Shown here: in pieces, positions 3,904 to 23,971 of the stretch
How positions within the stretch are numbered: the stretch's first letter is position 1
Layout of the letters: each line of letters opens with the position of its first letter
NCBI GenBank assembly: GCA_900555705.1
Contig: USLV01000001.1
Location: 1 to 36,043 of the forward strand
From: an uncultured Oscillospiraceae bacterium
Lineage (GTDB): Bacteria; Bacillota; Clostridia; Oscillospirales; Acutalibacteraceae
Reading direction: 5' to 3'
Length of the DNA stretch: 36,043 nt
Made by a program: the position numbers and the translations under genes
The notes under the pieces: generated by a model
The model's database searches: none
Seen by the model: only the letters and a program-made list of their open reading frames with translations
What the model was told of the DNA's origin: nothing

Positions 3904-3961
3904 AAAAATCCGCCCTCCTTTTTTCAACAGTGTTTCCGAAAAAAGGAGGGTTATACGCGAC

Positions 3962-4006: not shown

Positions 4007-4008
4007 TG

Positions 4009-5281: not shown

Positions 5282-5353
5282 ATGCAAACCATCGTGTTTC
5301 TCAATATCAAGGATGGGGTCAGAAAGACAATCAGTCGGGTTTCGGTACTATAA
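5282..5353 (+). pseudogene. Possible decayed N-terminal remnant of a ParA/Soj-type ATPase gene
   Basis: GGGGGGGAGAAG is followed by an ATG and the peptide MQTIVFLNIKDGVRKTISRVSVL, then a stop. This resembles the ParA N-terminus with a degenerate Walker A box (KDGVRKT versus KGGVGKT). The peptide is only 23 aa, so chance resemblance is possible. Confidence 0.25.
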
Positions 5354-5413
5354 AGCTGTAACAGAAAACACGTGGAAATCGGCAATAAAATGCACCGTTA
5401 AGAAGGCCATTGT

Positions 5414-7201: not shown

Positions 7202-7222
7202 AAGATAGACCACCTTTCATTT

Positions 7223-7240
7223 ACAGATGACGCCATCTGT
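7223..7240. promoter_or_regulatory. Palindrome in the promoter region of the 5414-7201 gene; possible operator
   Basis: ACAGATG-ACGC-CATCTGT has perfect 7-bp arms. It lies 22 nt upstream of the ATG, between the tandem terminator-like elements and the RBS. Confidence 0.3.
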
Positions 7241-7269
7241 TAACAAGGGCAGACACGGTCTTTCGGGAT

Positions 7270-7349
7270 AAAAATAGGCGCTGGCGGCGTTGTCCTCGTT
7301 GCCGGGCGTTAGCCCGGCGGCCTCGTCCGCCTTGCCAGTGCCCGTTTTT
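7270..7349 (-). terminator. Copy 1 of a duplicated long-hairpin element flanked by an A-run and a T-run; bidirectional terminator-like
   Basis: AAAAAT, then GGCGCTGGCGGCG...GCCGGGC-GTTA-GCCCGGC...CGCCTTGCCAGTGCC, then GTTTTT. The outer arms pair imperfectly and the apical hairpin is perfect. See copy 2. Confidence 0.4.
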
Positions 7350-7383
7350 CTACCCGAAAAACTCCACAGGACCGGACGGCGGT

Positions 7384-7464
7384 CAAAAAGGGCGCTGCCG
7401 TCGTTCTCGGATTTGGCGGGCGTTAGCCCACCTGTATCCTGTGGCCTTGCCAGCACCGCCTTTT
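7384..7464 (-). terminator. Copy 2 of the duplicated long-hairpin element; probable terminator of the SDR/ABC operon
   Basis: CAAAAAG, then GGCGCTGCCGTCG...GGCGGGC-GTTA-GCCCACC...GGCCTTGCCAGCACCGCC, then TTTT. It starts 53 nt downstream of the SDR stop at 7517. On the minus strand the hairpin is followed by CCCTTTTTGACC. Confidence 0.45.
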
Positions 7465-7516
7465 GTTCCGCTGTCCGACGTGTTTGTCCTTGTCAACCGA
7501 TGGTGACCTGCTCGTT

Positions 7517-8257
7517 TTATAGAATACGGGCATCCAGATGAAACGTCTGCCCGCTGACACCGCTGAAACAATCGGACGCGGCATAAAGCAAAAAATTCAC
7601 CAGATCATCCAGCGCGTCCGTACCATCCAACACACTTTGCTTTCTGGCCCGTGCAACCTTGTCCTCCCGACCATCATTAAGGCCGGTCTGTATAAACCCG
7701 GGGCAGACACTGTTGACAAGAATGTTATGTGCTCCCAGTTCTTTTGCCAGAGACTTGGTAAAGCCCGCGATAGCCGCCTTGGAGGTGGCGTAATTGCTTT
7801 GTCCCGCACTGCCGATCTGACCCATTAAAGAGGAAATATTAAACACCTTGCCCTTGCGGCGTGTTCGCATGTGTACGGTAAAGTATTTGCAGCATAGAAA
7901 ACAGCCTGTCAAATTTACGTCAATCACCCGCTGCCATACCTGTGTCTGCATATGTTCTACCGAATCGTCAGCACAAATACCGGCATTGTTGATCAAAACA
8001 TCCACATGCCCGAAATGCGCCAATGCCTGATCGTATAGAAGCCGTACGTCCTCCTCTCGCGATACATCCGCTTTCACTATCAGACAATCGGTCTGATGAG
8101 ATATATCCCGATATAGTTCCAGAGCCTCCCGCTCGCTTTGGCAGTAGTTGATGACGACATGTGCGCCCTCCCTTGAGAATGCGCGTGCCAGCGCACTGCC
8201 GATGCCTCTCGAGGAACCGGTGATCACCACAACTTTATCTTTCAAATTAATAATCAT
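7517..8257 (-). CDS. SDR-family oxidoreductase, 3-oxoacyl-ACP reductase (FabG)-like
   Basis: MIINLKDKVVVITGSSRGIGSALARAF carries the TGxxxGIG motif. NNAG is present, and the catalytic S...YxxxK appears as SNYATSKAA. 246 aa. Confidence 0.9.
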   Translation of the reverse strand: MIINLKDKVVVITGSSRGIGSALARAFSREGAHVVINYCQSEREALELYRDISHQTDCLIVKADVSREEDVRLLYDQALAHFGHVDVLINNAGICADDSVEHMQTQVWQRVIDVNLTGCFLCCKYFTVHMRTRRKGKVFNISSLMGQIGSAGQSNYATSKAAIAGFTKSLAKELGAHNILVNSVCPGFIQTGLNDGREDKVARARKQSVLDGTDALDDLVNFLLYAASDCFSGVSGQTFHLDARIL

Positions 8258-8273
8258 AGCGATATCCTATTCA

Positions 8274-10091
8274 TTATGAGATTTGGACACCCGACATATA
8301 TTTCTGCCCCTGTAGATGAAACAGATACGCATACTGTCCGTCCAAAGCCATCAGCTCCCGATGAGAACCGTTTTCTATGATCTTTCCGTTCTCCATCACC
8401 AAAATACGATCCATCAGCACGGTATTGGACATTCTGTGTGAAATCATCAGCAAGGTTTTATTCTCATACAGTTTCTTGAAATACGCCAGTATCCGATGCT
8501 CCGCTTCCGGGTCGAGAGAGGCGGTTGGCTCGTCCAAAATAATGGTATCAGATCCGCGAAAGACCGCGCGGGAAATAGCCAGCTTCTGGTTTTGTCCTCC
8601 GGACAGCTCCACGCCGTCCGGATCAAATATTTTGCCGACAAAAGTGTCCAGATTGCCGTTTCGATCAAAAATATCGTTGTGAAAATCAGAAAAGGCGAGG
8701 GCATCCCATATCCGGGCGTCGTCCTGCGTGTTGGCGGGATTGGATACGCCCACATTTTCTCTCACAGTAAAAGCATATACGTTATAATCCTGAAACACAC
8801 TGGACAGGCGGGAACGCAGGCTTTTGATATCCAGACAGCGCACATCCATGCCGTTGATATAAATAGAACCGGAATCGGGTTCATAAAATCGCATCAGCAA
8901 TTTGATAAGCGTAGTTTTACCGGAGCCGTTAATGCCGATGAGCGCGACCTTTTCTCCTTTGTTGATATGAAAGTTCACGTGGCTGAGAACCTGGCGGGCG
9001 GTACCGGGATAAGTAAAGCAGACGTCCCGAAATTCAATGGAGTTGATGGCATTGATCCGGAGCTCTCCCGAGGTCACCTCGCTTTCACTCAACAGGAAGT
9101 AGCGTTTGAAGTCCTCTATTTTCTGGTTATAACCGATATACATCGAGATGCTGCCGATCAAGCCGCTGATTCTGCCGGACAAGTTGCCGTAGAGGCCGGG
9201 GATATAGTTCAGATCGCCCAGCGTATAGGTGCGCCCGATAATCCGTATGATAATATAAACCTGTATACCAATATTCAGGGCTGTTTGCGGCAGTCCAAGG
9301 AGGATATTGATAAAATTATTTTTCTTGTTAAAGGATTTGCGCCGCAGGAACAGCTCTTTGTCCTTTTTTAAAAATCGTGCCAGCAACGTATCGGCCATGC
9401 CGAAAAAGCGCAGCTCTTTGGCCGCCTTTTTATTGAACAGCAGCGAGTGGATATAGCCGTTCTGCCGGTCCTCCCGGAAAATGCTTTTGTCAAACTCATA
9501 CCGCCGTTTCTCCAGTCCCTTTCTGAAAAGGAAGCTGGGGATCAGCGACAAAAAGGTAAGCAGTGTCAGCCAGACGTTGATCCGCAGGGTCAGTATCAGC
9601 GCCGTAATCAGGTTGACGATAGTAGTGAAGGTGCCAACGGTGGAAAACACAATTTCATGCATGGCATGAGAATTGTTGCGGCTGCGCGACATATCATCAA
9701 ACTTATCCGGTATATCGAAATAAGAGATATCGATATCGGCCGATTTCCTCATCAGGGAAATATTGATATAGGTTAACAGATTCTGAGTCTGCAGACCGGA
9801 TATTTTTCCGCCGAAATCGCTGATAAAGGTTACCAGAATACTGATGCCGAAATATAAAACCAGGCTGGACACAACGGAGGCCCATAGCGAAGCGTCGCCG
9901 GTCACATCGGTGCTCAGGATAGCCGAAATGTCGTCAATGATTCCCTTCATCACGTACATGTTGAAGAAAGGTACGATTCCCGTTATGAGGTTGATGGTCA
10001 TAATAACGAAAAAATTGCATTTATTGGCCTTAAAAACCAATTGCAGGCAAAAGGCGTAATTGCGAATGAAATTTTTCAGCTTTCCAATCAT
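8274..10091 (-). CDS. ABC exporter, fused permease and ATP-binding subunit (half-transporter B)
   Basis: 605 aa with an N-terminal 6-TM-type domain. Walker A is GINGSGKTT, the signature is LSGGQNQK and Walker B is IILDEP. Its ATG overlaps the upstream gene's TGA (ATGA at 10091-10088). There is no N-terminal C39 peptidase domain. Confidence 0.9.
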   Translation of the reverse strand: MIGKLKNFIRNYAFCLQLVFKANKCNFFVIMTINLITGIVPFFNMYVMKGIIDDISAILSTDVTGDASLWASVVSSLVLYFGISILVTFISDFGGKISGLQTQNLLTYINISLMRKSADIDISYFDIPDKFDDMSRSRNNSHAMHEIVFSTVGTFTTIVNLITALILTLRINVWLTLLTFLSLIPSFLFRKGLEKRRYEFDKSIFREDRQNGYIHSLLFNKKAAKELRFFGMADTLLARFLKKDKELFLRRKSFNKKNNFINILLGLPQTALNIGIQVYIIIRIIGRTYTLGDLNYIPGLYGNLSGRISGLIGSISMYIGYNQKIEDFKRYFLLSESEVTSGELRINAINSIEFRDVCFTYPGTARQVLSHVNFHINKGEKVALIGINGSGKTTLIKLLMRFYEPDSGSIYINGMDVRCLDIKSLRSRLSSVFQDYNVYAFTVRENVGVSNPANTQDDARIWDALAFSDFHNDIFDRNGNLDTFVGKIFDPDGVELSGGQNQKLAISRAVFRGSDTIILDEPTASLDPEAEHRILAYFKKLYENKTLLMISHRMSNTVLMDRILVMENGKIIENGSHRELMALDGQYAYLFHLQGQKYMSGVQIS

Positions 10092-11950
10092 ACCGTCACC
10101 CCCGCCGCCTCATCCACGAAATTCGAAGCCTGCAGATTGAACAAATACGCATACCGTCCGTTTCGTGCCATCAGTTCTTCATGGGTGCCATCCTCCAGCA
10201 CCACGCCATCCTCAATCACCAGGATTCGGTCCATCAGCGTTGTATTCGACAGCCGGTGGGAGATCATCAGCAGGCCGCGACCGCTATACAGCCGCTCAAA
10301 CTGTCGGAGGATTTCATATTCCGCCACTGGGTCGAGAGAAGCGGTTGGCTCGTCCAGAATCACCATATCCGCCTTGCGGAACGCGCCGCGGGCAATGGCC
10401 AGCTTTTGCTTTTGCCCGCCGGACAGCTCCAGTCCATCGTCTGAAAAATCCCGGCTGATATCGACGTCAAGAGAATCTATTCGTTCCAGAATGCCATGAT
10501 CCAGTTCGGCGAGAGTCAACGCCTCCCGGATGCGGGCGTCGTCCTCCCGGTTTTCATAATCTGACATTGCCACATTGTCTCTCACACTGAGCGAATAGGT
10601 GATATAATCCTGAAATACCGTGGAAAACACCTGGCGCAAGCTATTTAGCGTATACGCCTTGATATCCAGACCGTTTATGAGAATCTGTCCCTCATCCACA
10701 TCATAAAATCGCAGCAGCAGCTTGACAATGGTAGACTTTCCGGCGCCGTTCAGTCCAACCATGGCAATCTTCTCATGGCCCTGAATCCGCAGATTCAGAT
10801 GGTTCAGAACCGGCTGTTCTGTCAGCGGATAGGTGAACATCACATCTCGGAATTCAATGGTTTCCAGCTTTTTCAGTTTTCTTGTTCCGTTGTCCGGCAC
10901 AAAGGCCTTCAGCTTCATAAAGGAATCATATTTTTCAATGGTATAAGAGGTCTCGCCCAAACGCGCGATATTGTCAACGAGGTTGGTAAAGCTGCTCTTC
11001 AGGGTCGAAGTCATCCCGAGCAGATAGGCGAAATCGCCGATGGCGTTGCGTCCCTGAAAAATGCCCAGCAGCACCATGTACATGCTGATCCCGATCCCAA
11101 TCGTAGGCAGCATATTGCACAAGGAGTCCGCAAATCCCAGACGAACCGTCAGCCTTCTTTTTCCGCTGATATACGTGTTCCAATGCTGCCTGTATTTGTC
11201 CACCACCATATCGGACATGTCGTAAAACCGGACCTCCTGTGCGGTTTGCTTGCCCATAGCCACTCCGGCCAGATAGGAGACGCGGCGCATGATATTCTGG
11301 GTCTGCAGACCGTACTCGAACTGACGGCGAAGATACCGGCCCCGTGTGAAGAGAGGCGGCAGGGTAAACAGAACAATCACCAACGGAATCCAGGCATTGG
11401 TGGACAAAATGGTAACGGTGGTAGAGATGACAAGCGAGATCGTATTAATGATAAAGCTGAGGGTTCTCGTATACAGGACGCTCAACTGGGATTTCCCATT
11501 ATTGGCCTGCTCAATATGGTCATAATACCGGTCGTTGTCAAAATAGGAGATGTCGAGCGACGCCACTTTTTGTGCCATTTCCGTGTTGATATACTGATTG
11601 AAGCGGAGCTGCTGGGTTTCCCCGATCAACGAGGAAGCAAAATTGAGCAGGGTGAGGCCGAGAGAGAGCGCGGTAGAAACCAGTATCCAGAAACCCACCG
11701 GTTCCACCGCTTCATGGAAAGACCAGTGATTGATCAGCGCGAAGCTGAGGGTGTTGATCAGTTCCCTGCCGCAGTACATGAGCACAAAAGAGGACAGGGT
11801 ATTGATCAACGTGACGATTGTGGTCACCACGAAGAGACCGGGACTCGACATAAAAACCTTTTTGACGGAAAATGCGAGGAGCTTTAATAAAGCCAGCCGA
11901 CCGCCGGTATCCTTTTTATTCTTTTCAGAGGCAGAGGGGCCCTTTACCAT
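10088..11950 (-). CDS. ABC exporter, fused permease and ATP-binding subunit (half-transporter A)
   Basis: 620 aa. Walker A is GLNGAGKST, the signature is LSGGQKQK and Walker B is VILDEP. It is translationally coupled to the next ABC gene, which suggests a heterodimeric exporter. Confidence 0.9.
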   Translation of the reverse strand: MVKGPSASEKNKKDTGGRLALLKLLAFSVKKVFMSSPGLFVVTTIVTLINTLSSFVLMYCGRELINTLSFALINHWSFHEAVEPVGFWILVSTALSLGLTLLNFASSLIGETQQLRFNQYINTEMAQKVASLDISYFDNDRYYDHIEQANNGKSQLSVLYTRTLSFIINTISLVISTTVTILSTNAWIPLVIVLFTLPPLFTRGRYLRRQFEYGLQTQNIMRRVSYLAGVAMGKQTAQEVRFYDMSDMVVDKYRQHWNTYISGKRRLTVRLGFADSLCNMLPTIGIGISMYMVLLGIFQGRNAIGDFAYLLGMTSTLKSSFTNLVDNIARLGETSYTIEKYDSFMKLKAFVPDNGTRKLKKLETIEFRDVMFTYPLTEQPVLNHLNLRIQGHEKIAMVGLNGAGKSTIVKLLLRFYDVDEGQILINGLDIKAYTLNSLRQVFSTVFQDYITYSLSVRDNVAMSDYENREDDARIREALTLAELDHGILERIDSLDVDISRDFSDDGLELSGGQKQKLAIARGAFRKADMVILDEPTASLDPVAEYEILRQFERLYSGRGLLMISHRLSNTTLMDRILVIEDGVVLEDGTHEELMARNGRYAYLFNLQASNFVDEAAGVTV

Positions 11951-12083
11951 AATAGTTCACCAGCCAATTCTGTATAATCAACGGCCAGTCAGGATGACTC
12001 CGTTTCCTCGCCCGGACTGGTCGAAAAATTTGCGCCGTTAATGATCCGCCGTGGGAGACAACTCGCGTTGAAGCCGGAACAGG

Positions 12084-12118
12084 AGCCGGGTATACGCATT
12101 GGATGGGTATACCCGGCT
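12084..12118 (-). promoter_or_regulatory. Stem-loop between the precursor genes and the ABC genes (second of two)
   Basis: Perfect 12-bp stem AGCCGGGTATAC (12084-12095) / GTATACCCGGCT (12107-12118) with an 11-nt loop. No clear T tract on either strand. Confidence 0.35.
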
Positions 12119-12165
12119 GTCCATGTTATGTCATGATCCTTGGGAAACGGTTTATTTCCATATTT

Positions 12166-12193
12166 CCCGTGGCGGGTAACGTCCCGCCACGGG
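12166..12193 (-). promoter_or_regulatory. Stem-loop downstream of the last precursor gene; possible attenuator or processing site
   Basis: Perfect 11-bp GC-rich stem CCCGTGGCGGG (12166-12176) / CCCGCCACGGG (12183-12193) with a 6-nt loop. On the minus strand it is followed by AAATATGG, not a T tract. Confidence 0.4.
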
Positions 12194-12285
12194 CATGGTT
12201 CAATGTTCTCTCAGCCGTCCGGCCCAGCGCTGCTGCGCAGGGCCGGTGAACGGCGTGAGGTTATTATACCGTGACCAAAGGGATG

Positions 12286-12468
12286 TTACTTCGAACCGCC
12301 GGAACAGTCACCAGAGCAGCTGCCAGCGCAGTCGCCGGAGCAGGTTCCGGCGCAGGTTCCGCCGCATGCGCCCTCGCAATCGCCGGAGCAGGTTCCCGAG
12401 CAGGTAAACCAGCAGCTGCTGGCGGCCGCCACAAAGTCCGTGTTCTGATTGCCCAACATATAGGTCAT
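12286..12468 (-). CDS. CXXX-repeat RiPP precursor peptide 3 (60 aa, 10 Cys at strict i+4 spacing)
   Basis: MTYMLGNQNTDFVAAASS-CWFT-CSGT-CSGD-CEGA-CGGT-CAGT-CSGD-CAGS-CSGD-CSGGSK. AAGGAGG lies 7 nt upstream of the ATG. I verified the translation by hand from the DNA. Confidence 0.85.
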   Translation of the reverse strand: MTYMLGNQNTDFVAAASSCWFTCSGTCSGDCEGACGGTCAGTCSGDCAGSCSGDCSGGSK

Positions 12469-12598
12469 AAAAACGCCTCCTTGTTATGGTTTCAATCGTC
12501 CAAGCTATTGGGATACATTGTTCACACCATATCTTGTGTATGCTCGCTCAGTATGGCTCCTGTCGCATCGCAGCCTGGACAGTAAAGGACCGAAAAGG

Positions 12599-12760
12599 TT
12601 ACTTTGAGCTCGCGGTACTCGAGCGGCAGCTGCCATGACAACTGCCCTTGCAGCCGCCATCGCAATTGCCCGCGCAGGAACTATAACAGCTGCCCGTACA
12701 ACCGTCACAGGAACGGGCCACCGGAGACATTGCATCGGCTCCGCCCAGCAAATAATTCAT
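12599..12760 (-). CDS. CXXX-repeat RiPP precursor peptide 2 (53 aa, 8 Cys). It is below the length cut-off of the supplied ORF track.
   Basis: Hand translation from ATG 12760 gives MNYLLGGADAMSPVARS-CDG-CTGS-CYSS-CAGN-CDGG-CKGS-CHGS-CRSSTASSK, ending at TAA 12601-12599. AAAGGAGG lies upstream. The tracked ORF 12505..12735 is in a different frame and is Ala/Arg-rich. Confidence 0.8.
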   Translation of the reverse strand: MNYLLGGADAMSPVARSCDGCTGSCYSSCAGNCDGGCKGSCHGSCRSSTASSK

Positions 12761-12848
12761 GAGAAGTCCTCCTTTCTGCTAAGATGGATCCGCTATGTAT
12801 GCCAAACGGATCGACTCTTTGAGAGCCCCGCCTGTCGGCGGACGAAAG

Positions 12849-13031
12849 TCATTTCGAGCTGCCTGCGCAGCTGTCTTTGCAGGAACCGTGGCAGTCGCCA
12901 CTGCAGGCCCTGGCGCAGGCAGCCTCACAATCGCTTGTGCAGGCGGCCGTGCACCCGCCGCTGCAATAGTGAATGCACCAGCCGGCAGCCGGTATAAAGG
13001 CACCCTGATTTTGGCCAGTTAAATAGGTCAT
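12849..13031 (-). CDS. CXXX-repeat RiPP precursor peptide 1 (60 aa, 10 Cys at strict i+4 spacing)
   Basis: MTYLTGQNQGAFIPAAGW-CIHY-CSGG-CTAA-CTSD-CEAA-CARA-CSGD-CHGS-CKDS-CAGSSK. AAAGGAGG lies upstream. The leader start (MTY-x-x-G) and the C-terminal SK are shared with the paralogues. Confidence 0.85.
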   Translation of the reverse strand: MTYLTGQNQGAFIPAAGWCIHYCSGGCTAACTSDCEAACARACSGDCHGSCKDSCAGSSK

Positions 13032-13172
13032 GTGTTTTTTCCTCCTTTCAAAAAGACTGGTTCATCTTTTAGGCCGATGCTGCTTTGAGAAACAGGCAGA
13101 CACCGCCCGGCTAATCAAACATGGGAATCACCCCCTTTTCGGAGGAATCTCCTATTCTTGTCCGCATAGGAC

Positions 13173-14483
13173 TCATACTGAAGCCATATGATTTACAAAA
13201 AAATTCAGCTTTTTGCTGCCGACGTCGGGGGTGATCTCCTTCACATACGTGAACGTCCAACGGGTGTTCCCAAAGCCGTAGGGCTCGAGCGCTTCCAGAA
13301 AACGGGTGCGAATCTGCCGGTCCAGCTCGTCGCATTGCCTGTCCGCCGGCACAACGAGCTGCAGCTCAAAGTCGGAGATGTCCTTTTGGATCGCCCGGAA
13401 CTGCAAAATGCATTGGTCAAGATAGGTGTTGACGGCCTCCACGGCATAAAACATAATGACGCATTCTATCTCCGTGCCGTCCGGCCGGGTGATCAATTCG
13501 TTGCCGCGCCCGGCCTGCACGTCCAGAATCGGATGAATATTGCCGCAGGAGCAGCTCTCTCCCGGAAGCAGCCGGGCACGGTCGCCCAGATCATAGCGGA
13601 TAAAGGGCATGGCCTTGTTGTTCAGTCCTGTGACGCAGACATTACCCACTTCCCCCGGCGGTACAGGGCGGCCATTTTCTATAATTTCCACATGCACGTT
13701 GCGGGGCATCACATGCAGGTGTCCTTCGGCACATTCGAACGCAATGCCGTTGACCTCCCGGGCGCCGTATTCGTTTACTGCCGGCACCTGCATGATCTCC
13801 TCAATCGCCTGCCGGCAGGCGGGCTGTAAGAACTCGCCGGCCAGTTCAATATATTTTAAGCTTTTGATCGGCGGCAGGCCGTGGGACTGCATATGGCGGG
13901 CCAGCAGCAGGACGGTGGAAGGATGCCCCATCATCCACTCCGGTTCGAACTGAACGATATGGCGATAGTATGTATTGAGCGCTCGTTCGCTGAAATCGAG
14001 TTTGCTGAACGACAGGACAATGCCGTTTTCCCGCAGCATGATGCGAGGTGAGAACACCTGCTTGACGGTTTCACTCACATCGTTTCCCTCGTCGTCGAGT
14101 CCGCCGCTTTCCCGATAAGCAATTGAATGGAAAAACACGCATTTTGAATCCGGCATAATACCGAAGCGCTGGCGACGCCGTGACCAAAGGCTCATCAGGG
14201 AGCGAATATGCTGGTGCTTTTCCCAGTAGATGTCCAGGATTTTGCCGGTTGAACCGGAGGTCCGATCATGCAGAAGATCCTTTTTGCTGTATTCGTCGGA
14301 GAGAAAGTCGTCCGCTCTGGCGCGTACATCCTCTTTTTTCACAATGGGGAGCGATTCGAAAACCGACGCAATATCCTGACTGTCCGGTCGGATGCCGGCC
14401 CTGTCATATAGCTCTCTGTAAAAGGCTGTGTGACGGTAAGCGTACGCTACCATATCCGACAACTTGTCCTGATACTTATCCAT
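13173..14483 (-). CDS. Adenylate-forming enzyme of the phenylacetate-CoA ligase (PaaK) / F390 synthetase / CapK family
   Basis: MDKYQDKLSDMVAYAYRHTAFYRELYDRAGIRP...LPIVKKEDV...DRTSGSTGK is the typical PaaK-like N-terminus and P-loop-like motif. Start set at ATG 14483 with GGAGGG 8 nt upstream. It overlaps the ACP stop by 8 nt. Confidence 0.8.
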   Translation of the reverse strand: MDKYQDKLSDMVAYAYRHTAFYRELYDRAGIRPDSQDIASVFESLPIVKKEDVRARADDFLSDEYSKKDLLHDRTSGSTGKILDIYWEKHQHIRSLMSLWSRRRQRFGIMPDSKCVFFHSIAYRESGGLDDEGNDVSETVKQVFSPRIMLRENGIVLSFSKLDFSERALNTYYRHIVQFEPEWMMGHPSTVLLLARHMQSHGLPPIKSLKYIELAGEFLQPACRQAIEEIMQVPAVNEYGAREVNGIAFECAEGHLHVMPRNVHVEIIENGRPVPPGEVGNVCVTGLNNKAMPFIRYDLGDRARLLPGESCSCGNIHPILDVQAGRGNELITRPDGTEIECVIMFYAVEAVNTYLDQCILQFRAIQKDISDFELQLVVPADRQCDELDRQIRTRFLEALEPYGFGNTRWTFTYVKEITPDVGSKKLNFFVNHMASV

Positions 14484-14739
14484 TTGTCGAGCCCTCCGCC
14501 GACAGCGCCTGCCGCACATATTCCCACAGCTTGCCATACGAGGTCAAAATTTCATAGTCCAGCATATCGTCGTCAAATTCGATGCCGAACAGGTTTTCGA
14601 TATCCACTACCAGTTTGACAAAGCTGATGGAGTCAAATTCCAGATCGTCGACCAGATCCGTTTGTTCATTGATGTCTTCGTGGGTCAACTCCTGTCGTTT
14701 CGCCGAAACCAGCACCAGGTCCTTGAGTTTAGCTTCCAT
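14476..14739 (-). CDS. Acyl carrier protein
   Basis: 87-aa acidic protein with the phosphopantetheine attachment motif LEFDSISFVKLV (DSI/DSL type), followed by helices typical of ACP/PCP. Confidence 0.85.
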   Translation of the reverse strand: MEAKLKDLVLVSAKRQELTHEDINEQTDLVDDLEFDSISFVKLVVDIENLFGIEFDDDMLDYEILTSYGKLWEYVRQALSAEGSTNG

Positions 14740-14760
14740 GGTATTTTCCGCCTTTCTACT

Positions 14761-15087
14761 TTATTGTGCTTGCTGTTCCTTTGGCTTTGAAAAGATTATC
14801 TTTTTATGAACGTCAACCAACAACAGACTGTTTTCATCATGTACCAGCATGTATTTCTCGTCCATCCGTTGCCACCATTTGGAGAAAGCACGGTAGGTAT
14901 CCCGGTAAAGCTCGCGATAGGAGGGCGCTTTCTCCAGCCCCACCTCCGCCATCAGCTCCGGATGATCCTTTAAGCCCAGCCGCAGGCTGTGGTAGGCAGA
15001 AAGACGTTCCAGAAGAACGATATATTCGTCGTTTTCCTCTTCCGTAATGGAGACCGGCTGCATCAACTCATACATCATATTTTGCAT
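14761..15087 (-). CDS. Small helical partner protein of the maturase; candidate CXXX repeat peptide modification system protein
   Basis: 108-aa ORF. AGAGGTG lies 6 nt upstream of ATG 15087, inside the 3' end of the rSAM gene, giving a 20-nt overlap. No recognisable catalytic motif. The family name is recalled from NCBIfam/TIGRFAM naming and was not verified. Confidence 0.5.
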   Translation of the reverse strand: MQNMMYELMQPVSITEEENDEYIVLLERLSAYHSLRLGLKDHPELMAEVGLEKAPSYRELYRDTYRAFSKWWQRMDEKYMLVHDENSLLLVDVHKKIIFSKPKEQQAQ

Positions 15088-17224
15088 TTAACACACCTCT
15101 GTTTGAAATATAGATATCAATAAACGGGTCGTCGTACGTCGGCTTATCATCCGACTGGATCAGCTGCTTCTCCAACAGGGCCTTTTTGAGCTTTTGGGAA
15201 ACGGCATGATTGAGATGGCTGATCCGACATTGGATTCTGGGCGAGATCGCGAGTTCTCTTGTGCCGGCTTTATGAAGATACATGCAGCGGTTGCAGATCT
15301 TGACGTCACAGCTTGTGCACAAAGGAGAGGCGTCCCGACGGCAGAATTTGCTCTGCGACAGATCGATGCCATGCTCAAGGTCTCCAATGCTGTCCATTCC
15401 GTTAAAATAAAAGGCGGGGCAGATATAGAATTTCCCGTCCGGTGCCAGCGCGGCAGTGGTCGCACCGGCAGAACAATCGATTTCATTGGTTTTGTCAAAT
15501 GCATCCGTCAGCAAATTCAGAGCAGGCTTGCAGCCCGCTTCATACTGCTCGATCAGATAATCAGAGAGCGTTTCCAGCTGTTCTTTATACAGCGCGTAGT
15601 CCGCTTCCTTCCAAGACAACAGATCCTGCAGAAAAATGTTCAGTCTGGGCGACTTGACGAACAGAGCTTTTGCCATATCCGCCATATTCGACAGCGTATT
15701 GCGGGAAACCAGCAGAATGGTGGCCTCACCGCCCTCGAAACCATCATATACCTGATTGTCATGAACCGTTATGGTGCCTGCTGCTCCGTCTCTGTCGGCG
15801 CCGTTGATCTGAAAATACATATTATCCACCTGGTTCAGCCCATGATCGCATTCGCCGAGGAACACAGGAACCAACTGGTTATCGGTGCAATAGGCCAGTC
15901 CCTTTTTCAAAACTTCTTCGGACATTACTACATCGCTTTCGGGCCGGGATTCATAGGAGCAGTGAGGCGTGATATTGTCGGCGGTAATGAAATACAGATG
16001 CTTCAGGCCGATATTTCCTATCGAATTGGCTTTGGCGGTGGTAAGGGGAGCGGTCTTGCCCGTCGCCTCGCTGTACCGTTTCCAGAAATACCGATTGGCC
16101 CGGGCATTTGCTTTGTGCATATTGCAAAGAGAGATGGTGCGTTCAAAGATGGTATCCTTATCCGATGCCTCATAATTATGGGCTACGCACCATCCGCAGC
16201 CGAGTCCCACATCACAGGTATTGCAGTCATGCGGACTTTGGGATTTCCAGTCCAGCGAGATAAAAGAACGAAGCATGTCCATATTGATACCGTGTTCGAT
16301 ATCTCCCACAGTGAGCTTCTGATGGCCGGGACTGAAGCACATCTGCAAAAAGCGGATACAGGGATAAATAGATCCTTCACTGTCAAAGGCAAACGTCTTG
16401 TATCCCGCGCCGCAGCGATTACGATTCAAAGCCTCTGTTGTAACCGGAAGACCTACGGTAGCATTAAAAAAGGAGGTCGAAACCTTGTCCCACAGTTCAT
16501 TTTCAATTACGTAATCCGCCAGTTCCATGAGCTGATTCTCGAAAATGACATCGTCACCCTCCTGCCAGACATCTTCGTACACCAGATTCGCGGTAGCGAT
16601 AGAAAGACCGGTGTTCCAGAGATGAATGATGCTGTCTTTTAAATAGGGCAGGTCGGCGTGGGCAAAGGTTGCCTTTGTACTGGCACCCGGGAATTGACGC
16701 AACCAAAGCGGAACGTTTTTGATGACATCGTCATACGAGCCGGTACCGTCAATCTTCTTTCTGGACAAGTCGTGCTTCTCTTTGTTGCCGTCCAGACTGA
16801 TGGTGAACGAGCAGTGTCCTTCGTGCTTCTTGAAATAAGCCTGTACCTTTTCTTTATGATACAGTGTTCCGTTGGACGAAAAGGAAAACCGGTATCGATC
16901 GAACCACTTATGGCCGGTCGCGTACATCTTTGCTACAATATAATCGCTGATTTTATCGATGAGGTCGATCTCCAGTAACGGCTCGCCGCCTATAAAATCC
17001 CACACAACGGCGTCTTCGCTACAGATATAGGGATCTTCCAACACGTAATCTACGATCTTTTTCGCTGTTTCATAGTTCATCACATGAAACTCATTTTTGC
17101 CTACCATGTAGCAATAGGTACAACGGAGATTACAGTCCTCTGTCACGCAGAATGTCAGGGTCACACATTTTCCGCTGCGCCATGACTGGGCCCCCTGTGC
17201 CATATAGACGTTTGCATCATACAT
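15068..17224 (-). CDS. Radical SAM/SPASM peptide maturase (CXXX-repeat target type) with a long C-terminal extension carrying a second SPASM-like Cys cluster
   Basis: The CNLRCTYCY motif (CxxxCxxC) is near the N-terminus, followed by GGEPLL. The first SPASM region is ...RCGAGYKTFAFDSEGSIYPC...CNTCDVGLGCGWCVAHN. The second is ...CSAGATTAALAPDGKFYICP...CTSCDVKICNRCMY.... Start set at ATG 17224 (MYDANVY) with GAGGAAG upstream. It overlaps the ligase stop by 8 nt. Confidence 0.88.
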   Translation of the reverse strand: MYDANVYMAQGAQSWRSGKCVTLTFCVTEDCNLRCTYCYMVGKNEFHVMNYETAKKIVDYVLEDPYICSEDAVVWDFIGGEPLLEIDLIDKISDYIVAKMYATGHKWFDRYRFSFSSNGTLYHKEKVQAYFKKHEGHCSFTISLDGNKEKHDLSRKKIDGTGSYDDVIKNVPLWLRQFPGASTKATFAHADLPYLKDSIIHLWNTGLSIATANLVYEDVWQEGDDVIFENQLMELADYVIENELWDKVSTSFFNATVGLPVTTEALNRNRCGAGYKTFAFDSEGSIYPCIRFLQMCFSPGHQKLTVGDIEHGINMDMLRSFISLDWKSQSPHDCNTCDVGLGCGWCVAHNYEASDKDTIFERTISLCNMHKANARANRYFWKRYSEATGKTAPLTTAKANSIGNIGLKHLYFITADNITPHCSYESRPESDVVMSEEVLKKGLAYCTDNQLVPVFLGECDHGLNQVDNMYFQINGADRDGAAGTITVHDNQVYDGFEGGEATILLVSRNTLSNMADMAKALFVKSPRLNIFLQDLLSWKEADYALYKEQLETLSDYLIEQYEAGCKPALNLLTDAFDKTNEIDCSAGATTAALAPDGKFYICPAFYFNGMDSIGDLEHGIDLSQSKFCRRDASPLCTSCDVKICNRCMYLHKAGTRELAISPRIQCRISHLNHAVSQKLKKALLEKQLIQSDDKPTYDDPFIDIYISNRGVLNAKYDV

Positions 17225-18728
17225 TGTGTACTTCCTCGTTTCTTTTTGTTTTTCCGTTATAGGTTTTTGCCAGCGCTTTGACAAATTCGATCCTGCGAGG
17301 CGCTTTATAGCCGGAAAGCCTGTCCAGGCAATAGTTAATCAGCGCCCCTTCGCTAACCTCCTCTCCCTCCTTTATAACAATCTTGGCGCATGGCAGTTCT
17401 CCCATATATTCATCCGGCACGCCGTAAACCATGACGTCCGCCACACAAGGATGACTGAATAACACCTCTTCTACTTCCTCCGGGTAAATGTTGATTCCGC
17501 CGCTGATAATCATATTTTTTCTGCGGCCTGTCAGGTAGAGATAGCCTTCTTCGTCCAGCCGGCCAAGATCGCCGGTATACAGCCAGCCATTCCGTAAGAC
17601 AGCGGTTGTGGCGGAATCATTTTTGTAATACCCCTTCATTACGTTTTCGCCGCGCACTACAATTTCGCCAATTTTTCCATGATCCAAAACCTGTCCCTGT
17701 TCATCCACCACGGCTACCGTTACACCGGGAATAGGTCGTCCAACCGAACCCAGCTTGCGAACAGAATCTTCCGGCAATAAGGCGGTTACACGAGGAGATG
17801 CCTCTGTTTGCCCGTAGGTTTGCACAAAACCAACAGTGGGGAAGGCGCTGATCAGTTGCCGCAGCTTATCCACCGGCATTTTTCCTCCGCCAAAACAGAT
17901 ATACCGGAGAGAATGGATGTCGTATTCCTCTCGGCGGCGATAATCCAATAGGGAGAGCAGCATAGTGGGTACGCCTGTAAAATTGGTAACGCGGCATGTC
18001 TCCACAGCAGAAAAGAATTTCTTTGCAAGAAACATTCCTTCCAAAATCACCATAGATGCCCCCAGGTAAACATGAGTCAGGAACTGCGCCGTGTTACAGT
18101 ATCCAAAATACATGGGGAGGGCAATGAGAACAACATCATCTGCATTTAGAGAAAGGGAAGCGATGTTGGAACGTATATTGCACAACAGATTTTGATGAGT
18201 GAGCATTACCCGCTTGGGATGACTGAGTGTTCCCGACGTATGTAACATTACAGCAGTGGCATTTCGCCCTTCGTTATCCGCGACGCCTGCGGTCTTGATA
18301 ATCCATCCTTTTTCTCCTGCCAGCTTGGTCACATGCAAGGTATCTGTGTTTAGCAGATAGATCGAGTAAGGATAAGACTCTAATATCTGAGTTAATCCCG
18401 GTTGCAGCGCTGAATTGGTGATTATCAGATCAATTTCACAATTTTCCAGCGTGCTCCGTATCTCCGGCCCTTTGGACTGAGGGCCAATGGGTATAATAGT
18501 TCTATTTGCATATAGAATTCCAAAATATGAAACAGCATAGGCAATGGAGTTGGGCAAAAATAATGCCACATGGCATGAACTTGGAGACAGGCATCGAGAG
18601 AGAGAAATGGCTATATTTGTCGCTTTTGCATGCCACTCACGGTAGGATAGCCGTTGTTCTCCTTGCGTAATCGCCGTTTTGTCGTGGTATTTCCAGCGCG
18701 ACAATAGTCCACAGAGATGATCTATCAT
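17217..18728 (-). CDS. Class I adenylate-forming enzyme (acyl-CoA/acyl-ACP synthetase, ANL superfamily)
   Basis: ANL core motifs are present: LHTSGTLSHPKRV, YGQTEASP, GWLYTGDLGRLDEEGYLYLTGRRKNMIISGGINIYPEEVE, and a C-terminal YNGKTKR. Start set at ATG 18728 with AAGGAGGG 8 nt upstream. Confidence 0.88.
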   Translation of the reverse strand: MIDHLCGLLSRWKYHDKTAITQGEQRLSYREWHAKATNIAISLSRCLSPSSCHVALFLPNSIAYAVSYFGILYANRTIIPIGPQSKGPEIRSTLENCEIDLIITNSALQPGLTQILESYPYSIYLLNTDTLHVTKLAGEKGWIIKTAGVADNEGRNATAVMLHTSGTLSHPKRVMLTHQNLLCNIRSNIASLSLNADDVVLIALPMYFGYCNTAQFLTHVYLGASMVILEGMFLAKKFFSAVETCRVTNFTGVPTMLLSLLDYRRREEYDIHSLRYICFGGGKMPVDKLRQLISAFPTVGFVQTYGQTEASPRVTALLPEDSVRKLGSVGRPIPGVTVAVVDEQGQVLDHGKIGEIVVRGENVMKGYYKNDSATTAVLRNGWLYTGDLGRLDEEGYLYLTGRRKNMIISGGINIYPEEVEEVLFSHPCVADVMVYGVPDEYMGELPCAKIVIKEGEEVSEGALINYCLDRLSGYKAPRRIEFVKALAKTYNGKTKRNEEVHNV

Positions 18729-18813
18729 GTGAAAACCCTCCTTAATATAGATATAAGTATCACGCATATATATATTACATCACATAATTTGATAAAATCA
18801 TTCCTTTTATGCT

Positions 18814-18842
18814 ATTATATTTGAAAAATAAAACAATGTCAA
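18814..18842 (-). promoter_or_regulatory. Consensus sigma-A promoter of the RiPP operon
   Basis: Minus strand reads TTGACA (18842-18837), a 17-nt spacer, then TATAAT (18819-18814). A very AT-rich UP-like tract lies upstream. The -10 box is about 85 nt upstream of the first ATG at 18728. Confidence 0.65.
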
Positions 18843-19294
18843 TAATATTAAATAAAATAATAAGATATTCGACAAAAAATATTGTTTTTATATTGTGGAC
18901 AAATTTCCTTGTCATATTTATGGAGGGTGACCGATGTGCAGAAGTTGAATGGGAAAGAACGATCTTTCCGCTTCCTGTGACATCTAAGTCGGCAGATTCG
19001 AAGGTGAAATGAGATGTTGCGTGTTGATCGGCATACTTTTGCAATGCGTCTCAACCCCTTACGGGTTAACACATGTCGCATGTTTTTTGTCCTGTGCCAT
19101 ATGGAAAAGAGCAGGTTCCAGTCAACATACATGATCGTTTCCATGGACGGAAAGCACTGGATCAGGAAATAGCGGCTGCAGCATGCGGGGATGTGTCTGA
19201 ATTCTGTTAAGTGACGAGCCGTTAGCACGGAACGGTACATGTCTTTTATATAGATTTTATTGCATGAGTACGAGACTGGTCGTTTGATTTTCCT

Positions 19295-19328
19295 TATAAA
19301 ACAAAGAACCGGGCTTTTAGCCCGGTTC
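19295..19328 (-). terminator. Rho-independent terminator (minus strand)
   Basis: GAACCGGGCT (19306-19315) pairs with AGCCCGGTTC (19319-19328). On the minus strand it is followed by TTTGTTTTAT. Confidence 0.6.
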
Positions 19329-19930
19329 CGCGACACTGCGAACTTTTTTCTTTTTTCAGATCCTGATAATCATCAAAAGCTGTGATGAAACAAAAGAGCG
19401 AAAGAAATTTTCGCTGACGTTGACGGCCCTGGCAAGGCCGGCCGCGTTGTAAACAGTAGATGGAAGAATCATCTGTGAAAGCGATCTGCACAGTGGGTTT
19501 CGTATGGTTTCATCGAGTCACGATAAAATAACCTCTGCCAAGTCCTGGCGGATTTTGTGCTCTGATGGTGCAGGATTGACGGAGGTTTTTAGCTCTGTCA
19601 CAGCAGACTGACCCGACAAGTGAATGTCACCCCAACGAACATCTACAGGTGATACCTTGACCAATAGATAGTATCCCACGAATCGGATTTCCGGCAAGCG
19701 CACCTGCATCGCACAGCGATGGTATGGGACTGTTTTACGCGCATCATTTACGTAAATAACCAAAGCCTAGATAAGATAATATCTGCGCTTTGATTATTTG
19801 TTTTGTTGTAACAGAGTAAATGAAAACAGCCTTTCGGCTGGCATGGTCACTTCACAATGTCGTCGCTATCCACACGGGTTTCTGCCCTTTTGAACAATTT
19901 TCCCAGAACCCTGCGGTTCGCCGCCTGCTC

Positions 19931-19974
19931 CTACAATAAAGAAAAGAACAGCCCGCCCTGTCGGGCAGACTGTT
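19931..19974 (-). terminator. Terminator of the tRNA operon; bidirectional appearance
   Basis: Stem AGAACAG (19943-19949) / CTGTTCT (19968-19974) with an inner CCCG/CGGG helix. It is followed by TTTCTTTATTG on the minus strand and by TTTTTT on the plus strand. It lies directly downstream of tRNA-Val. Confidence 0.6.
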
Positions 19975-19981
19975 CTTTTTT

Positions 19982-20058
19982 TGGTGGGCGTAAACGGACT
20001 CGAACCGCTGACCTCTTGCGTGTGAAGCAAGCGCTCTAACCAGCTGAGCTATACGCCC
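19982..20058 (-). tRNA. tRNA-Val (anticodon CAC), CCA encoded
   Basis: The reverse complement is GGGCGTATAGCTCAGCTGGTTAGAGCGCTTGCTTCACACGCAAGAGGTCAGCGGTTCGAGTCCGTTTACGCCCACCA. I folded the cloverleaf by hand; the anticodon loop is TTCACAC. Confidence 0.9.
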
Positions 20059-20066
20059 GTAAAAAA

Positions 20067-20141
20067 TGGTGACCCGGACGAGAATCGAACTCGTGTTACC
20101 GCCGTGAAAGGGCGGTGTCTTAGCCGCTTGACCACCGGGCC
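20067..20141 (-). tRNA. tRNA-Glu (anticodon TTC), CCA encoded
   Basis: The reverse complement is GGCCCGGTGGTCAAGCGGCTAAGACACCGCCCTTTCACGGCGGTAACACGAGTTCGATTCTCGTCCGGGTCACCA. The anticodon loop is CTTTCAC. Confidence 0.9.
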
Positions 20142-20144
20142 AAA

Positions 20145-20221
20145 TGGTAGCGGTAGTCGGATTTGAACCAACGACACTGCGGGTATGAACCGCATGCTCT
20201 AGCCAACTGAGCTATACCGCC
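20145..20221 (-). tRNA. tRNA with anticodon CAT; elongator tRNA-Met, or tRNA-Ile2 if modified with lysidine
   Basis: The reverse complement is GGCGGTATAGCTCAGTTGGCTAGAGCATGCGGTTCATACCCGCAGTGTCGTTGGTTCAAATCCGACTACCGCTACCA. The anticodon loop is TTCATAC. It lacks the three G-C pairs in the anticodon stem that mark initiator tRNA. The 1-72 pair is G-U. Confidence 0.85.
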
Positions 20222-20289: not shown

Positions 20290-21102
20290 TCAAACTTTTT
20301 GGTCTGCGATTTCCGTGCTTCCCATCTGGATACAGCCGACCGGACAAGAAGAAACACAGGCGCCGCAGCCGACGCATTTGGAGCCGTCGATCTCTGCCAG
20401 AAAGCCGGTTACATGGATGGCGTCGTATTCGCAGACCTTTGTGCATTTCATGCAGCCGATACAGCCTTTGCTGCATGCCTTGCGCACCTCCGCGCCTTTC
20501 GCATGGCTGCTGCAGCGGACAACGGCGGGCTGCGCAGCGGGCAGCAGGGCAATCAGCGATTTCGGACAGGCGCCGACACACAGTCCGCAGGCGCGGCACT
20601 GGTCCGGATCAATGACCGCCAGGCCGTTCTCCACCGAGATGGCGCCATATTCGCAGACTGCCGCACAGTCGCCGTAGCCGAGGCAGCCATACGCGCACAG
20701 CTTGTCGCCGCCGAAAAATTGCGTCGCAGCTGCGCAGGAAGGGATGCCGTGATAATCGGCGCGCCTCCCGGCAATCTCATCACAGCCGCCGCAGCGCACC
20801 CTTGCTGCTGTTTTTTCCATGGAGACCTCACCGCCGACCAGCGCCGCAGTCGCAGATGCGACCTCCTCGCCGCCGGGGGAACAGAGTCCGGGCTTTGCCT
20901 CGCCGCTGGCCATCGCGGCGGCATAGCCGTCACAGCCGGAGTAGCCGCAGGCGCCACAGTTCGCGCCGGGCAACAGTGCCCGGATCGCCTCCGCTTTCTC
21001 GTCCCGCGGAACAGCCAGAAGGACGGAGGCAACCGCCAGAATCAGACCGGCCGCAAGCGCCAGCCCGGCCACGATCAGCACAGCCAACAGAATCGGATTC
21101 AT
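20290..21102 (-). CDS. rnfB: Rnf electron transport complex subunit B (polyferredoxin)
   Basis: N-terminal TM helix, then LPGANCGACGYSGCDGYA, followed by several CxxCxxCxxxCP ferredoxin motifs. It is the last gene of the rnfCDGEAB order. Confidence 0.9.
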   Translation of the reverse strand: MNPILLAVLIVAGLALAAGLILAVASVLLAVPRDEKAEAIRALLPGANCGACGYSGCDGYAAAMASGEAKPGLCSPGGEEVASATAALVGGEVSMEKTAARVRCGGCDEIAGRRADYHGIPSCAAATQFFGGDKLCAYGCLGYGDCAAVCEYGAISVENGLAVIDPDQCRACGLCVGACPKSLIALLPAAQPAVVRCSSHAKGAEVRKACSKGCIGCMKCTKVCEYDAIHVTGFLAEIDGSKCVGCGACVSSCPVGCIQMGSTEIADQKV

Positions 21103-21175
21103 ATGTCAGGACCATTCCTTTCTCTGCACTTTCTGCCGGTTCCGTACAGACGAGCGGCAGCGGGTTTGCACATGG

Positions 21176-23951: not shown

Positions 23952-23971
23952 ATGGGTTTGTCTCCTTTCCG

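Follow-up and report, generated by a model that had tools for sequence, protein, structure and literature searches.

A candidate carrier-protein-dependent acyl-transfer cassette in a CXXX-repeat radical SAM peptide operon

We analysed a 36-kb contig of an uncultured Oscillospiraceae bacterium (USLV01000001.1; hereafter the window), in which a single minus-strand series of genes runs from a promoter near 18842 down to 5414. The series encodes a radical S-adenosylmethionine (rSAM) pathway of the CXXX-repeat type for peptides ribosomally synthesized and modified post-translationally (RiPPs), an acyl carrier protein (ACP), a PaaK-like ligase, an ANL ligase, a short-chain dehydrogenase/reductase (SDR) and a BtrH-like protein. 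The last five may form a portable thiotemplated acyl-transfer cassette that has been grafted onto the CXXX pathway and acylates the C-terminal lysine of its peptides, a reading to which we assign a probability of about 0.5. Behind it are the gene content, the synteny, the catalytic motifs, the fold class and a correlation with C-terminal lysine in the precursors, all of which we observed. Below, cassette means the ACP and the PaaK-like ligase with their usual companions (ANL ligase, SDR and BtrH-like protein), and the labels L001 to L177 denote compared loci from relatives. In order of transcription the genes are:

17217-18728, minus strand: ANL (class I adenylate-forming) ligase, 503 aa; PF00501, 249 bits; AMP-binding_C PF13193, 66 bits
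15068-17227, minus strand: radical SAM/SPASM maturase fused at its C terminus to a CXXX-repeat maturase domain; TIGR04115, 489 bits (cut-off 350); TIGR04119, 227 bits (cut-off 150)
14761-15087, minus strand: CXXX-repeat peptide modification system protein, the small partner; TIGR04116, E 1e-8, 35 bits, under the cut-off of 50
14476-14739, minus strand: acyl carrier protein, 87 aa; PF00550, 36.2 bits (cut-off 20.8)
13173-14483, minus strand: PaaK/CapK-like adenylating ligase, 436 aa; PF00501, 34.2 bits (cut-off 29.9)
12849-13031, minus strand: precursor 1, 60 aa, CxxxC repeats, ending ...CAGSSK
12599-12760, minus strand: precursor 2, 53 aa, CxxxC repeats, MNYLLGG...CRSSTASSK
12286-12468, minus strand: precursor 3, 60 aa, CxxxC repeats, ending ...CSGGSK
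10088-11950, minus strand: ATP-binding cassette (ABC) exporter half-transporter 1, without a C39 peptidase domain
8274-10091, minus strand: ABC exporter half-transporter 2, without a C39 peptidase domain
7517-8257, minus strand: FabG-like SDR; adh_short, 195 bits; TIGR01830, 218 bits (cut-off 297.75)
5414-7201, minus strand: BtrH-like protein; BtrH_N PF14399, 36.5 bits (cut-off 29.7); C-terminal 3keto-disac_hyd PF06439

All the genes that an earlier note on this DNA had named lie where it had placed them, on the minus strand. That note had described an ACP with a DSIS attachment motif that overlaps the adjoining ligase by 8 nt and lies three genes from the ANL ligase, and both statements hold. 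The overlap is exact, with the ligase ATG and the ACP stop codon both within ATGGATAA, and couples the PaaK-like ligase translationally to the ACP; a GGAGGG ribosome-binding site lies upstream of the ligase start. The ANL gene is upstream, with the genes for the rSAM enzyme and the CXXX-associated protein in between. The phosphopantetheine-site serine of the ACP falls within DSIS (motif LEFDSISFVKL), orthologous ACPs carry DSL, DSI or DSV, and the weak best NCBIfam matches include the carrier proteins AmcB and AsbD.

The closest proteins to the PaaK-like ligase in the PDB are phenylacetate-CoA ligases (4r1l, E 9e-25), AjiA1 and NatL2-type PaaK-like ligases. Its earlier description as PaaK/F390-synthetase-like is correct at the level of the superfamily and does not extend to orthology: scores far under the cut-offs of the curated equivalog models (98.6 against 700 for NF041878, 81.5 against 646 for TIGR02155 and 60.8 against 459 for TIGR03335) rule out an orthologue of PaaK or of F390 synthetase. 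Nor are the two adenylating enzymes mechanistically different, as had been proposed, both being class I adenylate-forming enzymes of PF00501 (ANL, 249 bits; PaaK-like, 34.2 bits). Across 44 aligned PaaK-like sequences the P-loop TSGSTG (T75-G80), E243, D301, R326 and the A10 lysine K425 are invariant. The P-loop of the window enzyme reads TSGSTGK, YG..E is also invariant in its clade, and motifs A5 and A8 are conserved. With its catalytic motifs conserved in this way, the PaaK-like ligase should be an active adenylating enzyme.

A survey of PaaK-like proteins by phmmer covered 86 loci. Wherever the score reached at least 165 bits, L013 excepted, an ACP gene lies directly upstream (13 of 13 loci); among generic CapK-like loci from many phyla, an ACP or ANL gene was found nearby in 1 of 73 (L049). 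The ACP-linked proteins form one clade, apart from the generic CapK-like proteins, in a neighbour-joining tree built without support values. Ligases from CXXX-type clusters are monophyletic in this tree, and those from CLI_3235-type clusters occur in at least three places, interleaved with non-RiPP loci. A scan of species-representative genomes returned no relative above 34% identity; it gave 80 loci, the majority CapK-like genes of the generic kind without an ACP, and these served as a negative control. Judged from gene neighbourhoods, the PaaK-like ligase is most likely the loader of the ACP, since no other partner is found in every case and invariably coupled to the carrier. Locus L014, which has BtrH-like, ACP and PaaK-like ligase genes without an ANL gene, points to the same enzyme by elimination.

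Ligases 43-49% identical to that of the window occur in the same operon type in L001/L002, L003, L175 and L177, with the shared order ANL, rSAM, small protein, ACP, ligase, precursors, ABC, ABC, SDR. The small-partner gene is in the matching position in L001, L003, L175 and L177, and the BtrH-like gene follows further downstream in L001/L002, L003 and L177. The recurrence of one gene set at this level of protein identity (L001-L003, L175, L177) argues that the arrangement is no chance juxtaposition. In L001 an extra GNAT gene stands between those for the SDR and the BtrH-like protein, at the position of a pair of tandem hairpins in the window, and in L003 a gene for an ACPS-type phosphopantetheinyl transferase (PPTase) lies beside the cluster. 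More distant ligases, 28-37% identical, are encoded in CcpM/CLI_3235 rSAM clusters (L004, L006, L011, L014, L167 and L168), and one distant relative lies in a multi-rSAM cluster (L005).

The earlier note had reasoned that conservation of these genes elsewhere without RiPP genes would speak against a common pathway. This is partly what we found: the cassette also occurs without rSAM or precursor genes, in L007, L008, L010, L176 and L169, on Clostridium perfringens plasmids and on a Bacillus cereus plasmid, though in the window it is interleaved with RiPP genes. Its occurrence without RiPP genes indicates that the cassette is portable and not RiPP-specific. Among 80 other metagenomic CXXX-rSAM loci, ANL, ACP and SDR genes were found together in one (L098) and a BtrH-like gene in none. 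L098 is a human-gut contig with the order ANL, ACP, SDR, CXXX rSAM (7449-11596), which ends inside the rSAM gene. The three CLI_3235 clusters checked that lack the cassette also lack BtrH-like genes; an Enterococcus plasmid match (H3), whose cluster is broken by an insertion sequence element, was excluded as a negative example. The pair of ACP and PaaK-like ligase is the invariant core of the cassette, and the ANL ligase and BtrH_N protein are frequent companions. The SDR accompanies the cassette in CXXX-type clusters, L167 and L098; its gene adjoins those for the ANL ligase and ACP in L098 and L167, and that for the ANL ligase in L177. This distribution suggests that the cassette is an accessory unit, inserted repeatedly into different pathways, and that the window belongs to a small CXXX clade that has gained it.

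Cassette and C-terminal lysine go together. All 21 precursors in the 11 cassette-bearing clusters end in lysine, whereas 12 of 65 do so in clusters without the cassette. Counted by cluster the figures are 11 of 11 against 6 of 54 (Fisher P=1.4e-8; P=6e-12 at the peptide level), but these P values overstate independence; four independent lineages would be a fairer basis, and the probability that all four end in lysine by chance is then about 1e-4 to 1e-3. Among unique CXXX precursors without a cassette, 12 of 62 end in lysine (~19%; loci with lysine-ending precursors alone, 6 of 51). None of three cassette-free CLI_3235 precursors does (SacP23, ...GIGN; C. pasteurianum, ...VFWS; C. tagluense, ...GASV). 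The C termini in the cassette-bearing clusters are:

Window: ...GSSK, ...ASSK and ...GGSK
L001: ...GSK and ...GAK
L003: ...GSK (three precursors)
L175: ...GSK (three precursors)
L177: ...GSK
L004: ...FWK (two precursors)
L006: ...SYK
L011: ...SGK
L014: ...ITK
L167: ...GGK (two precursors) and ...SGK
L168: ...YHK

Neighbouring proteins in the peptide-free cassette loci were also checked for a C-terminal lysine; several secreted ones end in lysine, which is uninformative in AT-rich Clostridia.

The candidate transferase is the BtrH-like protein. Its N-terminal part of about 340 aa is predicted to adopt a bipartite fold, papain-like and helical: the AlphaFold2 model (mean pLDDT 91.4), built on 62 of 2710 relatives, has strands and helices over residues 1-185 and helices over 193-338. 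The 2710 relatives, mostly of about 340 aa, came from an exhaustive HMMER search with residues 1-370. A word-indexed search with the sequence gave only two close homologues, and a profile search of PDB sequences with the family gave nothing relevant. Foldseek comparison with the PDB returned significant neighbours of two kinds only, both at probability 1.0: AziU3/U2 (E 3e-9 to 5e-8) and CcbD (E 5e-7 to 1e-6), including CcbD bound to the peptidyl carrier protein (PCP) of CcbZ. TM-scores were 0.5-0.59 at 11-13% identity, and CtaG itself was absent from the PDB matches returned. CtaG of closthioamide biosynthesis has AziU2/U3 and CcbD as structural relatives, a bipartite fold and a Cys11-His128-Asp144 triad, and AsbE (petrobactin) and BtrH (butirosin) have been placed in the CtaG class of papain-like carrier-protein-dependent ligases (PMC12865890). 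Cys14 and His124 are present in the window protein, and its model places it in the CtaG/AsbE/BtrH/CcbD fold class.

The BtrH_N gene co-travels with the ACP and ligase genes rather than with the RiPP core, and is present in most cassette loci, peptide-free ones included. Dedicated ACP and loading-type ligase genes lie beside it in the window, in most cassette loci and on the C. perfringens plasmids. The C-terminal ~225 aa form a DUF1080-type beta-sandwich; several RiPP-associated relatives have counterparts of it, as additional domains in L004, L008 and L011 and as a discoidin domain in L006. Among the 62 relatives the triad positions read Ser-His-Asp/Glu in 22 and Gly-His-Gly in 14 and contain Cys in 9, and Thr or Ala occupies the nucleophile position in the members from L010 and L176, both of them loci without peptide genes.

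A pathway can be proposed from these elements. An adenylating ligase, most likely the PaaK-like one, would activate a carboxylic acid as its adenylate and load it as a thioester on the holo-ACP. Provision or tailoring of the acyl unit would fall to the ANL ligase and the SDR: a keto acid might be reduced by the SDR while thioester-bound, or a second building block might be activated and joined to the first in the fashion of NatL2 or BagE. The acyl group would then pass from the ACP to the BtrH-like papain-fold ligase, which would link it through an amide bond to a primary amine on the Cys-crosslinked peptide, most likely the epsilon-amine of the C-terminal lysine that all these precursors share. 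The ABC pair would export the product. Two adenylating-superfamily enzymes that prime one ACP have a precedent in AuaEII/AuaE of aurachin biosynthesis. The earlier note had likewise proposed loading of the ACP with an acid and its transfer to the peptide, with the BtrH-like protein as candidate transferase; gene co-travel, the modelled fold and the C-terminal lysine favour this indirectly, and the loading and the acylated product are steps that we infer.

Several points weigh against acylation of the peptide. The order of steps, the acceptor site, the identity of the acid and loading itself are all things that we infer. One ACP with two adenylating enzymes exceeds the needs of a simple acyl transfer, leaving the role of the second ligase unexplained. 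The correlation with lysine is weakened by shared ancestry, the CXXX cassette clade being monophyletic, and lysine endings, often SSK, are also found in the ~19% of cassette-free CXXX precursors noted above; the CLI_3235 negative set consists of three precursors only. The cassette is also found without RiPP genes, and its product need not be a peptide adduct. A BtrH-like gene was not seen in L005, L167, L168, L169 and L175, some of them on incomplete contigs. In the BtrH-like protein itself, the third triad position is Ser142, 18 residues after the histidine, where 32 of the 62 relatives, including most close ones, have Asp or Glu. The nucleophile position also varies among these relatives (Ser 24, Gly 16, Cys 9, Thr 7); covalent catalysis is then not general in the family, or some members have no catalytic role. 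Finally, two terminator-like hairpins part the BtrH-like gene from that of the SDR:

7202-7516, minus strand: spacer between the SDR and BtrH-like genes, 315 nt
7262-7475, minus strand: two tandem units of ~114 nt, 73-78% identical, each folding into a long hairpin with a 3' U-run (z-scores -5.8 and -4.9)

The core motif of these units, GGGCTAACGCCCG, is confined to the two of them within the window, and the tip of each hairpin is GGGCUAACGCCC. They might act in attenuation or termination, or be what is left of a mobile element. The earlier note had the SDR close the operon, and transcription may indeed end there in part, at the tandem hairpins; a BtrH-like gene in the same orientation nevertheless follows, here and in relatives. 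It is the conserved next gene after that of the SDR in L177, and in L001 it comes after the intervening GNAT gene.

The strictly terminal position of the lysine is just as compatible with recognition of a free carboxylate, which also counts against acyl transfer to its side chain. The PaaK-like ligase might adenylate the alpha-carboxylate of this lysine, to be captured by an amine, a hydroxyl or the ACP thiol. Possible outcomes are an amide or ester at the C terminus, a lactam of the lysine, or a peptidyl-S-ACP, with the ANL ligase and ACP giving the partner and the BtrH-like protein resolving the thioester. Such a route would account for two ligases around one ACP, and for a lysine that is the very last residue in 21 of 21 precursors, not just somewhere in the core. 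Related PaaK-like ligases (NatL2-type, AjiA1 and BagE/FevW) form esters or amides directly from adenylates. We nevertheless consider carboxylate activation unlikely. The same PaaK-like clade is found, at similar distances, in precursor-free loci, which suggests a common small-molecule substrate, and strict coupling of ACP and ligase is what would be expected of a carrier and its loader. Moreover, no member of the PaaK family is known to us to act at the C terminus of a peptide.

It is comparably improbable that the cassette makes a product of its own or modifies an acceptor other than the peptide, and is merely co-regulated with the RiPP genes; a small acylated amine, a component of the cell envelope and an immunity function are candidates. 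Its autonomy in the RiPP-free loci and plasmids listed above is what such a role would predict. Yet cassette and RiPP genes are mixed within a single operon, in the window as in its relatives, and each of the independent entries of the cassette into two unrelated RiPP families goes with precursors that end in lysine.

We regard as very doubtful a scheme in which the whole crosslinked peptide is adenylated at its lysine carboxylate and thioesterified onto the ACP, the papain-fold ligase then resolving the peptidyl-S-ACP by amide formation. A lactam of the lysine or a macrolactam could result, or coupling to an amine that the ANL branch provides, and we know of no precedent for a direct hand-off from ribosomal peptide to carrier protein. 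Least credible is that the BtrH-like protein is a papain-fold leader peptidase unrelated to the ACP, with the ACP and ligases serving another step: its papain-like fold with Cys14 and His124, and an operon that encodes no other protease and no C39 domain, would allow this, but the core pathway manages without a BtrH-like gene in all 80 other CXXX loci, CLI_3235-type cassette clusters carry an S8 peptidase besides one, BtrH-like genes accompany the ACP and ligases in precursor-free loci, and the nearest structures are transferases or ligases and no proteases.

For acyl transfer from the ACP to the C-terminal lysine, the reading that we prefer, the ANL ligase and SDR would act on the acyl unit. 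The former had been called a fatty-acyl/aryl-AMP ligase. It is an ANL enzyme, but it is not a fatty-acyl-AMP ligase (FAAL). FAALs are recognised by a specific insertion and a length of about 570 aa or more; this protein has 503 aa, and its residues 24-494 align end to end with residues 41-502 of the CoA ligase FadD13, with no room for an insertion, which rules out a FAAL. FadD13 is among its nearest solved structures, together with oxalyl-CoA synthetase, MenE and feruloyl-CoA synthetase, and all NCBIfam matches are under their cut-offs. A ribosome-binding site, AAGGAGGG, lies 7 nt ahead of the ATG at 18728; this start codon and that of the BtrH-like gene at 7201 are both backed by ribosome-binding sites. 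The SDR has the glycine motif and YxxxK. A housekeeping FabG orthologue was ruled out, the TIGR01830 cut-off being missed.

The RiPP core is a CXXX-repeat radical-SAM system. The next-best family of the rSAM enzyme is that of the PapB-type ranthipeptide maturases (205 bits), and its homologues number more than 2483. Each of the three precursor genes has a strong ribosome-binding site, and each precursor contains 8-10 Cys at CxxxC spacing, with scores under the cut-offs of the curated precursor models. Precursor 2, which sits between the two 60-aa precursors, is shorter than the 60-aa threshold of the open reading frame (ORF) listing and is easily missed. In a large subgroup of metagenomic CXXX loci (L101-L163) the rSAM enzyme and the CXXX-maturase domain are encoded by two genes, and many peptides end in SSK, SSR or SSY. 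The long precursor leaders of this subgroup carry a twin-arginine-like motif, SRR[ED]FFKxAAK, followed by a hydrophobic stretch, and look like a twin-arginine translocation (Tat) signal on a RiPP precursor.

The operon is preceded by a promoter-like site:

18814-18842, minus strand: sigma-70-type promoter-like site (TTGACA, 17 nt, TATAAT), matching the consensus at 12 of 12 positions

The operon lies in a block of low G+C content (about 5100-19980; ~0.49, against ~0.60 in the flanks) whose genes are all on the minus strand and which adjoins three tRNA genes (Val, Glu and Met; 19982-20221, minus strand). The block has the appearance of an acquired island; the ORFs examined in the window included no integrase gene. 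An Rfam scan of the window returned the three tRNAs and nothing else, and a strong terminator hairpin follows the tRNA cluster (19979-19942). The domain scans, which covered the operon and ten flanking ORFs, found no ketosynthase, no condensation domain of nonribosomal peptide synthetases (NRPSs) and no thioesterase, in agreement with the earlier note. Neither a PPTase nor a GNAT domain was found among the window proteins scanned.

SpoVAD and parts of two Rnf operons are encoded among the flanking ORFs scanned, which marks the host as a spore former of the Clostridia. The two apparently paralogous Rnf-type operons are both on the minus strand, one with RnfB, RnfD and RnfC-like genes at 20290-25294 and a second copy within 30175-33644, where a second pair of RnfD and RnfC-like genes occupies 31400-33644. 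Between them lie an HNH endonuclease gene (26894-28015), a HAD hydrolase gene and a DUF4015 gene.

Among the compared loci, about 30 C. perfringens plasmids of ~70-75 kb match the PaaK-like ligase. On one of these (L172; NZ_CP076002.1, 75 kb, positions 6142-12785) the BtrH_N, ANL, ACP and PaaK-like genes are contiguous, with ABC-2 transporter genes before them and, after them, a HAD hydrolase gene and one for a 622-aa amino-acid adenylation protein; the annotation of the PaaK-like gene reads just 'hypothetical protein'. The gene content of this set suggests a small thiotemplated pathway, as yet uncharacterised, on plasmids of clinical relevance. Locus L007 (Eubacteriaceae, 2416-12292) has a butirosin-like set of a BtrH-like protein, a BtrK-like pyridoxal phosphate (PLP)-dependent decarboxylase, a BtrJ/PGM1-like ATP-grasp enzyme (PreATP-grasp, PGM1_C) and an ACP, to which are added a second ACP, an ANL ligase, a PaaK-like ligase and a second BtrH-like gene. 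Large secreted proteins are encoded downstream, and there is no rSAM or precursor gene. L007 has one BtrH-like gene per ACP, and roughly the same holds in L012. Pairs of LytTR response regulator and histidine kinase genes adjoin the clusters in L168, L171, L176 and L177, and L171 also has AgrB and a cyclic lactone autoinducer peptide; this neighbourhood suggests quorum-sensing control.

In the literature, work of 2026 on RiPP N-acyltransferases names GNAT-modified lipopeptide families and prenylated RiPPs only (PMC13647313), and a 2025 preprint, to judge by its title, describes a further acylation route via the lipoprotein pathway. Papain-fold carrier-protein-dependent ligases were recognised as a class in 2026, in ribosome-independent pathways only (PMC12865890). 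Our search, incomplete for subscription journals, found no description of the cassette in CXXX or CLI_3235 clusters and none that joins papain-like ligases with acylated RiPPs. If the proposed acylation is correct, ribosomal peptides would be joined with thiotemplated chemistry, through a compact portable module that adds a non-ribosomal acyl group at a predictable C-terminal lysine. The CXXX-repeat and CLI_3235 peptides of gut and anaerobe Clostridia would then include a new subclass, and genome mining would have a simple rule: a member of the ACP-linked PaaK-like clade, a BtrH_N protein and a precursor ending in lysine. The module would also offer an engineering tool for site-specific peptide acylation and a first functional lead for the C. 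perfringens plasmid cassette.

Comparison with known systems places each part of the operon. The rSAM enzyme passes both curated models (TIGR04115 and TIGR04119) of the CXXX-repeat system (TIGR04115/04119/04116), which is related to the PapB/freyrasin-type ranthipeptide maturases; of the 80 other sampled members, however, 79 are without ACP, ligase and SDR, and all 80 without a BtrH-like gene. The PaaK-like ligase shares with PaaK, NatL2, AjiA1, BagE/FevW and CapK the short-N-domain class I adenylate-forming fold, the P-loop and the A10 lysine, but is under the equivalog cut-offs and in a distinct ACP-linked clade. In the goadvionins the acyl donor is ACP-bound. These belong, with the selidamides, lipolanthines and lipoavitides, to the GNAT-dependent acylated RiPPs, which bear the acyl group on Lys or Orn side chains or at the N terminus (PMC13647313; PMC8784127). 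The transferase in that group is a GNAT, whereas the window candidate is a papain-fold protein with its own ACP and two ligases and an rSAM-crosslinked Cys-rich scaffold; L001 has a GNAT too.

The butirosin (BtrI/BtrJ/BtrK/BtrH) and lincosamide (CcbC/CcbZ/CcbD) pathways resemble the proposed one in that a carrier-tethered acyl group is passed to an amine of a finished scaffold by an enzyme of BtrH_N or CcbD fold. There, however, the acceptors are amino sugars and loading is by an ATP-grasp enzyme or an NRPS adenylation (A) domain; identity to CcbD is only 11-13%. The closthioamide enzymes CtaG/CtaH/CtaI/CtaE of Ruminiclostridium are likewise stand-alone clostridial thiotemplated enzymes. CtaG, a papain-like ligase with a Cys-His-Asp triad, follows a ping-pong mechanism in which a carrier protein donates the acyl group (PMC12865890). 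Cys14 and His124 of the window protein are at near-identical positions, and the two proteins share AziU2/U3 and CcbD as structural neighbours. CtaG works between two carrier proteins, whereas the window has one ACP, a peptide as proposed substrate and Ser as the third triad residue.

In petrobactin biosynthesis the ANL ligase AsbC adenylates an acid and loads the stand-alone carrier AsbD, whose model the window ACP weakly matches. AsbE, a papain-fold transferase of the CtaG/BtrH class, then moves the acyl group to a free primary amine (for the class, PMC12865890). The acceptor there is spermidine, the pathway has no second PaaK-like ligase, SDR or rSAM enzyme, and its similarity to the window proteins is at family level only. 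Taken together, AsbC/AsbD/AsbE with CtaI/CtaH/CtaG and BtrI/BtrH offer the closest working analogy for the proposed pathway.

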